Assembly (NCBI GenBank): GCA_947258515.1
Contig: CAMYIO010000013.1
Location: 760 to 64,759, forward strand
Direction of reading: 5' to 3'
Length of the DNA: 64,000 nt
Source: an uncultured Ectothiorhodospiraceae bacterium
Lineage (GTDB): Bacteria; Pseudomonadota; Gammaproteobacteria; UBA9214
In this document: positions 1-3,408 of the stretch, in pieces
How positions within the stretch are numbered: position 1 is the stretch's first letter
Layout of the letters: each line of letters opens with the position of its first letter
Made by a program: the position numbers and the translations under genes
Notes under the pieces: model-generated
What the model was told of the DNA's origin: nothing
Databases searched by the model: none
The model's input: the letters and a program-made list of their open reading frames with translations, nothing else

Positions 1-264
1 GGCATTTTCCTTACTACACTGCTGTTGATCTTTGTTGCCGAGTTTGGTGACAAAACACAGATCGCGGTAGCAGGATTGGCAGGTAGTTTCGATCCTTTGT
101 CGGTGTGGTTAGGCGCCACCACTGCACTGGTCATGGTCTCGGCACTCGGAGTCTGGGCCGGACGCACCGTGTTGCAGCGCCTCCCACTTCATTGGATTCA
201 CCGAATAAGCGGAGGGGTCTTCCTGCTATTCGCCTTGCTGGCGGCTTGGCGAGCCCTTGCCTGA
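1..264 (+). CDS. UPF0016/GDT1(TMEM165)-family membrane protein, C-terminal part; 5' end upstream of window
   Basis: Open in frame from nt 1. AEFGDKTQ (E-x-G-D-K-T) signature and hydrophobic segments typical of UPF0016. Confidence 0.7.
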   Translation, partial: GIFLTTLLLIFVAEFGDKTQIAVAGLAGSFDPLSVWLGATTALVMVSALGVWAGRTVLQRLPLHWIHRISGGVFLLFALLAAWRALA

Positions 265-418
265 AATTACTCTGAGATACCCAGATTCACATCACCAGGG
301 TATTTGCCCTTCTAGGTCTGGAAAGCCCTCGCAACCTGTCGTTCCCTAACCTGTGGGCTACTTCCGAAAAGCCGCAACGGATAGGGGTAGGGAACGGCGA
401 TCGCCGTCCCCTCCCTCC

Positions 419-451
419 GAACCCGGTGTGCGGTTTTCCCGCGACGGGCTC
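419..451 (-). ncRNA. group II intron domain V catalytic hairpin
   Basis: Minus-strand GAGCCCGTCGCGG-GAAAA-CCGCACACCGGGTTC. It has the AGC triad, a 2-nt AC bulge, and a 14-bp stem with a GAAA-type loop. Confidence 0.7.
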
Positions 452-468
452 TCCAGTCGGTTTTTTCC

Positions 469-1100
469 TCATCGGGATTGGCGCGCTAATCGATGGGTTT
501 CTGACATCGTGAACAACCCAAGATCGGCGAAGAAAGCATTCGGCCATTGTTTGTGATCGCGTAGGCATCGTCCTTGACCCGGTCGGTGCTTCTGCCGGCG
601 CAGCATTGCCCTCAAGCGACGGCGAACAAATCCGTCGATTGACGAGAAAGTGAACCGGTGTGCATGTTGGAAGTAGCCGTACCAGCCTCGCAGAGTCGGG
701 TTAAGAGACGCAATCACGTACTCGATGGATTTCCCCTCGTTACGTTTAGTCTTGGCGCGGATTTTATCCCGCAATGACATTAGACTTTTCTTGCGTACCC
801 AACGCTTCCCTGCTTCAAACCGGTAACCCAGAAACTCGAACCCTTGACCTTCCACCCGACAGTCCCCAACATGGGTTTTGTCTGGATGGAGCATCAATCC
901 GTTCGCACTCACCCAAGCACGCACACGGGCCAGCGCCGATTCCGCTTCCTCCCGACTGCGACACAACACCACGGCGTCATCGGCGTAACGCAACATCACC
1001 AATCCGGCTTCCCGCATTTCTACGTCAAGCTCGTGAAGGTAAATATTGGCAAGCAAGGGGCTGATTACCGCCCCTTGCGGACTGCCAGCTCGGCCTTGGA
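469..1100 (-). pseudogene. group II intron-encoded reverse transcriptase/maturase, N-terminally truncated (RT 0-4 absent, no endonuclease domain)
   Basis: ORF 469..1344 is chimeric. Only the C-terminal ~210 aa are RT/maturase-like. Residues upstream of GSPQGAV are unrelated and the pspA frame differs. Confidence 0.75.
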
Positions 1101-1223
1101 TTCCCATTCGCTCGCCTCTTTCTCGATGGCGGCCAGTTTGCGGTTGAGCTCTTTCTTGTCGGCGATGGAACGCGCCGCTGCCGAACGCACCTCGACCAGC
1201 GTGTCCTCCATTTCCTGAATCAT
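1065..1223 (-). pseudogene. pspA: pspA (phage-shock protein A / IM30) internal fragment, roughly residues 33-84; no N- or C-terminal parts
   Basis: Translation [52 protein letters not shown] closely matches E. coli PspA [25 protein letters not shown]...WQEKAELALLKER. Stops flank it on both sides. Confidence 0.6.
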
Positions 1224-1234
1224 GCATCAATAGC

Positions 1235-1272
1235 GGCGACCTTCGTTCATTCGTTGGTCGCCGTTTTTCTTT
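1235..1272 (+). terminator. orphan intrinsic terminator-like hairpin (GGCGACC-N13-GGTCGCC + TTTTTCTTT)
   Basis: 7-bp GC-rich stem followed by a T-run on the + strand. There is no + strand gene immediately upstream. Confidence 0.45.
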
Positions 1273-1690
1273 GAGGTTGAAGATCATATTTTGGCTGGCA
1301 GTCAACGTACGATAGCAGGACGGGAACGTCCGGAGTTGCGGCATTGCTGACCTACAGATGTCTGTTGGGGAACGGCAAGTCCTGGGCCAACTTACCCGTT
1401 CAAAATTACGCCAACGCCAGACTCTGTTAGTCTAGCGAATGGCAGGTTTCCGTACGACCCCGGTCCTTTATGTCACGCACATTGGATTCTACACCCCACA
1501 ATACACGTTATGGAAAAGAGCCATCATGGCAGCCAATAAAATCCGACACTTATTCCAGAAATGCTTTACATAACACTACCGGAAGGTTAGGAAGAAAGCA
1601 CAGGTGCCATGGACTCCGGCAATTCGCGACATGACACAGAAAGCCCCCTGTCGTCCCCCTGAAAATGGATTTCAGAGGCCCCGGCAGGCG

Positions 1691-2053
1691 TCAGTATTTG
1701 AGCCATTCGAGTGCAGCTTCCTCTTCACTGAAGTGAAAATGCCGCACCTTGGGATTCACAAAGTAACCGATGATTTTTTGTAGCATGTAAAGCAGTTTAC
1801 TGTTGGATACGGTTGCGACTTTCTCAACACTTTTGTGGTGATCCCTTATAAATTTGATGTGCGAGCCAATACTGGCAATGTCTTTCCAGCCAGAGAACGT
1901 CTCGGTGTAGATCATCATCCCCTTGAGGTCCCCGTTCTTTTCAATATAGGGATCGACCCGCCGGGCAAACTCATCAATGTCGGCCGTCTCCAGCGGACCT
2001 GCAGGTGACAAAACAAAGATCCCAAGATCATGTACCAGCTCATGGTTGAGCAT
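1691..2053 (-). CDS. STAS/SpoIIAA-like small protein (DUF3478-like), 120 aa
   Basis: AAGGAGAAAAATA-ATG RBS at the internal Met (MLNHELVHD). Low-GC coding region. Fold call is from sequence pattern only. Confidence 0.55.
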   Translation of the reverse strand: MLNHELVHDLGIFVLSPAGPLETADIDEFARRVDPYIEKNGDLKGMMIYTETFSGWKDIASIGSHIKFIRDHHKSVEKVATVSNSKLLYMLQKIIGYFVNPKVRHFHFSEEEAALEWLKY

Positions 2054-2307
2054 TATTTTTCTCCTTGAAGAAACCTTGTTGGCATAGCGTATCCTAACCA
2101 TAGAAAAAAAATCACGCTTTGTCCCCGGTATTATCGAAAATCGGCACAATCCGCATCAGACCCGGGTTCTGGAACGGCCGATAATTCCTATTTTTATATT
2201 CAATTACAATATGTTGCATTTATTTCCTGTTATTGCTTCACTGCCGGCAAACAGCGGCAACATGACACACAAGCAGCGCTTGTCTGGACAGGACCTGGAA
2301 CTGGCGC

Positions 2308-3408
2308 TCAAAACACGATGACGAGCTGTGCAGCAACAAGATGCCGGGAATCGATTGGGTTGTCGTCATCATCAAAAACGAAATCGTTCTTGTACACACC
2401 GTAAAGGTAATCAACAGAGAGATTGACGCGGTAGCCGATCAGCCAAGTCGCGGACACTCCGTATTGCAATTCCGGCTCATCTGGAACCTCGCCACTGGTT
2501 TCGACACGGGCCGCAAACTGGAAATCGTTGAGCGGAAACCAGGCCACTTCAAGGTTGGCGGCCCAGGGCCGGTCTTCTTCGGGCTCAAGCTCATCGAAAT
2601 CACGGATCGCACCGAGATACTCGGCAGTAATTTCGTATGTCTCCCTGCCGATCAGTGCGTTGACATTAATACCACCCACACGGCGCAGGTACTTGTTATT
2701 GAAATCATCAAGGTATTGCTCATCGGTTTCAGCCATGTCCGAAAAATAACCTGCACTGAGCTTTAGCGACTCGTCTTCAGAGGCATACTCAAACCCGCCA
2801 CCCCAGTCGACCTTTCGTCCTGACTCGCCCCAGTTATCCGCATTGCTATCGAGTCCATAGGCAAATACATCAACCGCGTCAGTCAGTTCATAATCCGCAA
2901 CCAGCGCATAGCCACGCGTCTCTCCGAACTCGAGTATCGGACCGGTCACAAAATGACTATAGAATTCTCCGAAGGGTATATACAATTTACCGGCCTCGAT
3001 ACCGAACGATTCCCCTTCATAGCTCAAAATTCCTTCGTCTATAATTGAATAATTGGAATTAACCTCGTACTCAAAAACAAACTCCGCGGCGACCCGTTCC
3101 GACAGGGTAAAATTCAGGCCGAGTTGCAGCGACGCAAGTGTAACGTCACCGCTTTCACCGGATTTATTATCGCCTGACAAATTAAAGTGCTCGAATTCAC
3201 TCTCGACCTCGGCCAGACCGGAAACACTCAACCAGTCGGTAAGCTTCCGGCCCAGGCCTGCCTCACGCCGTTCCGAGGGAGACCGGTAGAGCTTGGGAGT
3301 TTTTTCAACTTGCGGCTCTGCAATATCCTCTATCACATCCCCTGCATACACGGCCCCGAACAACAACGGCAGACTGAAGGTCAGGAAGGCAGCAGATAGC
3401 GCTCTCAT
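2308..3408 (-). CDS. outer-membrane beta-barrel porin (signal peptide, C-terminal Phe; LbtU-like porin family suspected)
   Basis: N-terminal signal peptide MRALSAAFLTFSLPLLFGAVYA. Alternating amphipathic strands. C-terminal ...LVIVF is an OMP signature. Confidence 0.6.
   Translation of the reverse strand: MRALSAAFLTFSLPLLFGAVYAGDVIEDIAEPQVEKTPKLYRSPSERREAGLGRKLTDWLSVSGLAEVESEFEHFNLSGDNKSGESGDVTLASLQLGLNFTLSERVAAEFVFEYEVNSNYSIIDEGILSYEGESFGIEAGKLYIPFGEFYSHFVTGPILEFGETRGYALVADYELTDAVDVFAYGLDSNADNWGESGRKVDWGGGFEYASEDESLKLSAGYFSDMAETDEQYLDDFNNKYLRRVGGINVNALIGRETYEITAEYLGAIRDFDELEPEEDRPWAANLEVAWFPLNDFQFAARVETSGEVPDEPELQYGVSATWLIGYRVNLSVDYLYGVYKNDFVFDDDDNPIDSRHLVAAQLVIVF

Follow-up and report, generated by a model that had tools for sequence, protein, structure and literature searches.

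The chimera at 381..1223 (−) of the window, the whole 64-kb stretch of DNA analyzed here, joins what is left of a class C-like group II intron, its 3′ third, to a stray 156-base piece of pspA. Judged against other copies of the same intron family, it fills the slot of a complete family intron, with a stem-loop, CTAT, the element, and a 3′ exon starting with CC. We favor, at a probability of about 0.48, an origin in a single aberrant retromobility event, in which the growing cDNA would have switched at a microhomology from the intron RNA to pspA sequence. Truncated copies of group II introns are common, and the element itself therefore changes nothing; it is an ordinary object, and the useful part is the junction, which we regard as a modest curiosity, unusual and informative. 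Read along the minus strand, the order is hairpin, CTAT, TGATGC, pspA, intron, and flank (Table 1).

Table 1. Features of the chimera and its surroundings, in window coordinates
Feature	Position	Strand	Description
GDT1-family gene end	up to 264	+	GDT1 domain at 1-261
3′ exon flank	265..380	-	begins CC like most family insertion sites; spacer from the GDT1-family gene stop to the insertion
Group II intron remnant	381..1088	-	last 708 nt; positions ~1158-1863 of ~1863
Domain VI hairpin	385..415	-	intact; bulged branch-point A, 8 nt from the 3′ splice site
Domain V	419..451	-	intact; AGC triad, AC bulge, GAAAA loop
C-terminal 206 codons of the intron-encoded protein (IEP)	469..1088	-	RT4-RT7 with YADD, maturase X, short C-tail; stop codon 471..469
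Overlap zone CTGGCAGTCCGCAAGGGGCGG	1068..1088	-	21 nt; intron reading G-S-P-Q-G-A, pspA reading L-A-V-R-K-G-R
Internal pspA fragment, ectopic by sequence comparison	1068..1223	-	52 codons, 156 nt, profile positions 32-83; same orientation as intron
TGATGC	1224..1229	-	six nt separating the putative insertion site from the pspA fragment
CTAT	1230..1233	-	putatively assigned 5′-exon nucleotides (IBS1-like), directly after the hairpin
GC-rich hairpin	1234..1263	both	8-bp stem CGGCGACC/GGTCGCCG, 14-nt loop

The segment 1088..379 (−) is 98.6% identical to L004, an independent intron copy with a different 3′ flank, and the remnant aligns to intron positions 1158–1863 of the full-length copy in locus L089. 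Its 3′ boundary is exact, at 381 (−), where the flank departs at once from the flanks of all other copies after …CCCCTAT. The intron 5′ end (GUGYG-like) and domains I–IV are absent, with no blastn or Rfam D1–D4 match in 1224–1566 or anywhere in the 64 kb; no further intron pieces lie beyond 1088..381 (−) within the 64 kb, and no intron 5′ nucleotides (GTACG…) are left at the 5′ junction of the chimera. These results bear out a reading made earlier from the sequence only, that this is a 5′-truncated group II intron, of which the last 708 nt of about 1,863 nt are present. Because it has neither the ribozyme core (domains I–III) nor RT fingers/palm motifs 0–3, the window element is a fragment that can neither splice nor move. 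A candidate for the missing intron 5′ end, GTGCGTGACAT near 1480 (−), was rejected; it is unlike any full-length copy and has no Rfam D1–D4 match.

Domains V and VI had been placed on the minus strand by the sequence-only reading, and both a covariance-model search and covariation within the family agree with it. The full Rfam Intron_gpII model (RF00029) matches 453..381 (−) with 36.9 bits (E=2.4e-5) in a permissive search of the small region; this score is just below the RF00029 gathering score of 40, so the match is unlisted in the whole-window gathering scan, where a t44 RNA (RF00127; 55788–55904 (−), 60.8 bits) is the sole match. In an alignment of 36 distinct family copies, the domain V/VI segment of the remnant is base for base the family consensus. 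Across these copies the two domains are 93% paired, with double-sided changes at 10 of 26 pairs, versus 0–2 when the partners are slid, and the observed values were reached by none of 500 shuffles. The domain VI helix (helix 2) is 98.9% paired and has double-sided changes at five pairs; its A is unpaired, 8 nt before the intron end, and the flanks of about 60 copies part right after CCCCTAT. Covariation in domain V is found in L162 and L163, and in its lower helix the two top pairs are mismatched in most family members, intact copies included.

The protein-coding part of the remnant, 1071..472 (−), matches Pfam RVT_1 (positions 124–204 of 205) and GIIM. Its match to the NCBIfam profile group_II_RT_mat (TIGR04416; positions 185–352 of 353, E=8e-42) is far ahead of those to Drt3a (1.6e-12) and retron RT (5e-6), and by these profiles the fragment is clearly a group II RT rather than a retron or DGR RT, in line with the earlier assignment. 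A tblastn search with the intact L089 IEP aligns residues 214–419 to 1089..472 (−) at 95.6% identity. RT4–7 and X are thus present (residues 214–419 of 419), including the RT4 motif SPQGAVISPLLAN; the earlier description of a protein with RT 5–7 and X and without RT 0–4 holds for RT 5–7 and X and fails for RT4. Likewise, the absence of an En domain is real and is not a loss, since En is missing throughout the intron family. The remnant contains no stop codons or frameshifts, and its coding differences from L004 are four synonymous and four non-synonymous. We also note that upstream of the junction the IEP frame runs on without a stop for another 91 codons, across the out-of-frame pspA and the hairpin, giving an open frame of 291 codons at 1344..469 (−). 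Two gene calls of the source record, a 212-aa “RT” (P0183) and a 52-aa “PspA” (P0121), are likely annotation artifacts; the locus is an annotation trap, in which neither would be a real gene.

Scanning metagenomes with P0002 as the query gave 80 loci with IEPs 67–98% identical to P0002. A complete family element is about 1,863 nt long (917–2779 in L089), starts with GUACG or GUGCG, and ends with CCCCUAU. The full-length IEP, of about 419 aa (419–488 aa in L089), has RVT_1 and GIIM only, no En, and ends like the window copy. Rfam group-II-D1D4-3 recognizes the 5′ part of the ribozyme in L088 and L099 and, among the eight loci scanned first, in six. In 57 of the 60 5′ junctions of the family, the first intron nucleotide comes 1–6 nt after the end of a perfect 4–10-bp stem, and these target stems vary in sequence by site (for example ACCGC..GCGGT-TTAGT, CCCCCGGC..GCCGGGGG-AT, and CCCAACAGCGG..CCGCTGTTGGG-T, each ending at the insertion point). 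Head-to-tail tandem copies occur in L088 (83–3800) and L099 (1–2700), where the second copy directly follows the …CCCCTAT of the first, indicating that domain VI itself acts as the target hairpin; in both arrays the second copy is thus also preceded by CTAT.

Insertion downstream of DNA stem-loops by introns with an En-less IEP is class C (IIC) behavior, and IIC introns, lacking En, use replication forks at terminator motifs for priming (PMC4424553). Class C targets are stem-loops such as terminators or attC motifs, in place of a long homing site of defined sequence; the class is also marked by the phylogenetic position of the IEP and by a ribozyme with a small DI and IBS1/IBS3 only. The solved proteins nearest to the family IEP are those of IIC introns (7UIM, 6e-59; 6AR1, 2e-58; 5HHJ, 3e-51, also 5HHL), followed by IIB (5e-45) and IIA (7e-40). 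We call the family class C-like, by its En-less IEP and its hairpin targeting.

Several further features of the family loci were recorded. About 25 loci from different metagenomes (for example L087 3036–3053, L091, L092, L095, L109, and L143) have a near-identical 5′ exon, …CCCT ACCGC-GNNA-GCGGT TTAGT before the insertion point, and their 3′ exons are also alike (CCNNCGRCCC…CGG); these common exons suggest, at the level of sequence, a recurrent repeated target element. The full-length L089 copy lies inside an IS66-family element, with an orf2/TnpB-like ORF and a 547-aa transposase directly downstream (L089 2688–4781). Farther along L088 there is a different intron (D1D4-2, with Intron_gpII at 54.6 bits), and in L133 the family copy is closely preceded by an unrelated second group II intron (1562–1710 (−); Rfam D1D4-7, 98 bits), which lies on the other strand. 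Three more family copies are internally 5′-truncated, in L154 (693–2082), L150 (3133–3705), and L153 (1–123); the first adjoins an IS4-like transposase ORF, the second is fused to a 190-aa ORF, and the third is cut in domain IV near the contig end. At least one of these (L154) was cut by an IS element, and truncation in this family therefore has several causes. Bacterial group II intron copies in general are mostly truncated or inactivated (PMC4424553).

The pspA fragment matches TIGR02977 (positions 32–83, E=1.9e-19) as well as PF04012, bearing out the earlier recognition of a 52-codon internal PspA fragment in another frame, fused to the intron. Its 52 residues are identical to a Woeseiaceae-type PspA, and the closest pspA genes are from Woeseiaceae and related sediment gammaproteobacterial MAGs. 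Compared with the pspA of L002, which like L001 is a native locus with the layout pspF-pspA-pspB-pspC, the fragment has no amino acid differences and 22 nucleotide differences, 20 of them at third positions; the source pspA was therefore a functional gene, kept under selection until not long before it was captured. In comparisons with 80 native pspA genes, homology stops sharply at 1223/4 and 1068/9. A tblastn search of the 64-kb window found no match to pspF, pspB, or pspC, and no other pspA, and no window ORF matches the ±10 kb around the 80 native psp loci, save weak paralogue matches to two-component regulators and a sigma-54-type activator. With no psp partners, no shared genes, and sharp edges on both sides, the fragment is by these comparisons ectopic, a captured piece; it has no psp function and is not a psp gene. 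The earlier statements that the window holds no other pspA, and that the downstream flank does not continue pspA, both survived, the 3′ exon being neither pspA nor pspB. Both pieces of the chimera look young, judged from the 98.6% identity of the intron part to L004, the consensus domains V and VI, and the unchanged pspA amino acids.

Two apparent parallels to the fragment were set aside. Many PspA matches of 77–91 aa might be taken for a recurrent truncation at about codon 84; this was rejected, as homologues were listed only up to about 1.75 times the query length, so that short queries give misleading “truncated” homologues. P0122, considered as a truncated PspA, is a frameshifted normal pspA inside pspFABC.

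At the junction, the overlap zone is identical (21/21) to intron copy L004, whose match is perfect from CTGGCAGTCCGCAAGGGGCGG onward, and the same 21 nt finish the PspA reading …AELAVRKGR. Against the L002 pspA the zone matches at 17 of 21 positions; the four mismatches all fall on third codon positions, the very ones that vary among native pspA genes. As the overlap can be read both as intron and as pspA, the breakpoint lies somewhere inside a microhomology of 17–21 nt, a length judged against the related L002 pspA. The ORF spanning the junction occurs once among about 15 billion proteins, and the junction rests on one contig.

On the 5′ side, CTAT directly follows the hairpin, whose end is 4 nt from the putative insertion site and 10 nt from the start of the pspA homology. 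It folds at −24.2 kcal/mol on the plus strand (z=−4.4), with z=−3.2 on the minus strand. On the plus strand it is followed by UUUUUCUUU, with a T-run to about 1274, making an intrinsic terminator that probably belongs to the GDT1-family gene. Taken on the minus strand, 1263..1234 is the kind of stem-loop that this intron family targets; neither this hairpin with its CTAT, nor the 21-nt overlap, nor the class C-like targeting of the family had been noted in the sequence-only reading. TGATG of the TGATGC repeats the pspA sequence across codons 31–32, a putative reading of the origin of these six nucleotides; a second microhomology at the 5′ pspA junction is limited to a weak, gapped resemblance upstream of TGATGC.

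A search for an empty site through orthologues of the SpoIIAA-like neighbor found none. The closest strains, represented by L165 and L166 at 94–96% nucleotide identity, are colinear with window positions 1567–3183 and diverge at about 1567, opposite window 1–1566 (L165 2408–3708, L166 828–1074); the site beside the SpoIIAA-like gene is a strain-variable spot. In L165, a HepT/MNT toxin-antitoxin pair takes the place of window positions 1224–1566 and the chimera. The ~290 nt at 1275–1566 contain no ORF of note, no Rfam match, and no match to the fetched loci; 1224–1700 has no match to plasmids, and no promoter-like site was found in 1–2400. The low-GC neighborhood reported by the sequence-only reading is real and mild, about 0.45–0.47 at 1500–2400 versus ~0.55–0.60 around.

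The anatomy, the overlap, the ectopic location, and the family target rule are shown by the comparisons above; for the order of events and an RT switch on RNA, which we infer, we propose the following. An En-less class C-like intron would have attacked the stem-loop 1263..1234 (−) and reverse-spliced after CTAT. Synthesis of cDNA would start normally from the 3′ exon side and copy domain VI, domain V, and the 3′ half of the IEP gene, until the growing end left the intron RNA within the RT4-coding stretch. That end would then re-anneal at the ~17–21-nt microhomology in pspA sequence, most simply a same-sense pspA mRNA, and 135–156 nt of pspA would be copied before the cDNA and the 5′ exon were linked, with several nucleotides added between them. 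The resulting chimera, dead on arrival, would consist of the hairpin, CTAT, TGATGC, pspA codons 32–83, the intron 3′ 708 nt, and the 3′ exon.

A single mobility event would explain together the exact 3′ end, the lack of intron 5′ nucleotides beside an intact hairpin, the microhomology, and the common orientation of the two pieces. In its favor are the precise, family-typical 3′ boundary with a 3′ exon starting CC, the position of the chimera at the kind of slot, 1–6 nt after a stem, that 57 of 60 family copies occupy, and an ectopic pspA in the same sense as the intron with a 21-nt overlap. Against it, there is one instance on one contig, with a junction ORF seen once among ~15 billion proteins, and the hairpin terminates the opposite strand, which is not the usual IIC orientation as described. 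The pspA copy also ends at codon 32 and not at the mRNA 5′ end, requiring a second break or switch.

Abortive reverse transcription, suggested in the earlier reading, is thus the leading mechanism, and the same product could come from DNA rearrangement. It is quite possible that a full intron inserted and that a break or stalled fork within it led to microhomology-mediated template switching or end joining, with the 156 nt of pspA as filler and the 5′ 1,155 nt deleted. The final sequence would be identical; hairpins stall forks, a 21-nt overlap is equally typical of DNA-level microhomology-mediated repair, and other family copies, such as L154 beside the IS4-like transposase, have been cut by clear DNA-level events. 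However, the deletion must end at or beyond the first intron nucleotide and yet spare the hairpin and CTAT, two separate events would be needed within a short time, as both pieces look young, and pspA would lie in the same sense as the intron by chance (1 in 2). That orientation would favor a switch at the RNA level over one at the DNA level by only about 2:1.

We consider it improbable that the chimera is an assembly product, in which a 21-mer common to pspA and a repeated intron mis-joined graph paths of the metagenome-assembled genome. In favor of it, the overlap length of exactly 21 nt is often the minimum k-mer size, a single contig carries the junction, and many metagenomes contain the intron as a multi-copy repeat. 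Nonetheless, a k-mer mis-join would run on into full pspA, whereas here pspA stops after 156 nt, at 1223/1224, without a usable k-mer, and two mis-joins within 156 nt of a 96.7-kb contig are unlikely. Final assembly k is also normally far above 21, and an artifact does not predict placement at a family-typical hairpin target.

A native psp locus that decayed here, with an intron inserted in or beside pspA and deletions taking the rest, is very unlikely. It would fit a fragment whose protein is 100% identical to the PspA of a related organism, but at least three precise deletions would be needed; no pspF, pspB, pspC, or further pspA is found in the 64 kb, window ORFs match the 80 native psp neighborhoods only through weak paralogues, the 3′ exon is neither pspA nor pspB, and close strains have unrelated genes at this place. 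The sequence-only reading had called the fragment a relic of a phage-shock locus, and this part of it is contradicted by these searches and by the sharp edges of the fragment. That the frame 1344..469 (291 codons), or its 212-aa version, is a domesticated thumb/maturase-only protein acting in trans is scarcely credible: the frame is open for 91 codons above the junction, the remnant is free of stops and frameshifts, and maturase-only IEP derivatives exist in organelles (PMC4424553), yet no promoter-like site is found in 1–2400, the 4:4 ratio of synonymous to non-synonymous differences from L004 gives no sign of selection, the upstream 91 codons are out-of-frame pspA and hairpin, and the chimera has no homologue elsewhere.

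Returning to the single retromobility event, its strongest form is that the locus preserves, as a natural fossil, the jump of a group II RT in vivo, in a bacterium, from intron RNA to pspA mRNA, leaving a chimeric cDNA at a hairpin target; this full form is doubtful. If true, it would give LINE-1 chimeric retrocopies a counterpart in bacteria, and group II introns would be able to retro-duplicate pieces of host genes. To our knowledge, the evidence that group II RTs switch templates and join ends through microhomology comes so far only from in vitro work and heterologous systems. These enzymes switch templates to RNA or DNA, including two switches in sequence, with 5′ junctions that contain intron truncations, extra nucleotides, and microhomologies (PMC3280974), and a IIC RT carries out microhomology-mediated end joining (bioRxiv 10.1101/2022.03.14.484287). 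The junction here, with its long microhomology, same-sense host-gene segment, and whole-intron slot, is the kind of footprint that such switching predicts. Should like chimeras recur at the 5′ ends of truncated bacterial introns, it would follow that these RTs occasionally copy cellular RNAs into genomes.

Among known systems, PspA/IM30 is a ~220-aa coiled-coil protein encoded in a pspF-pspABC context, and the fragment, with 52 residues (profile positions 32–83), represents a quarter of it, without the start, the N-terminal helix, the C-terminal coiled coil, the operon, or the sigma-54 context. The IIC introns B.h.I1, GsI-IIC, and the Eubacterium rectale IIC retroelement (PDB 7UIM) resemble the intron family in having an IEP of RT and X with no En. 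IIC introns also insert a few nucleotides downstream of stem-loops, terminator-like ones included, and form tandem copies (PMC4424553), as the family does. Unlike them, the window copy is without domains I–IV and IEP residues 1–213, and the hairpin in the window serves as a terminator for the other strand.

“Dead on arrival” copies truncated at the 5′ end are known for bacterial group II introns and are typical of LINE elements. Like these retroelements, the chimera has an intact 3′ end, a lost 5′ part, and a normal target site; unlike them, its truncation point meets a host-gene fragment through a long microhomology rather than meeting the 5′ exon directly. The 5′ truncation, extra nucleotides, and microhomology of the chimera are also alike to those in linear Ll.LtrB retrohoming and LtrA switching in vitro (PMC3280974). 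These systems, together with end joining (MMEJ) by the GsI-IIC RT (bioRxiv 10.1101/2022.03.14.484287), are experimental, using Drosophila embryos or purified enzymes, and involve short microhomologies and end-to-end switches. By contrast, the chimera would have arisen naturally in a bacterium, through an internal switch at ~17–21 nt that captured a segment of a cellular gene.
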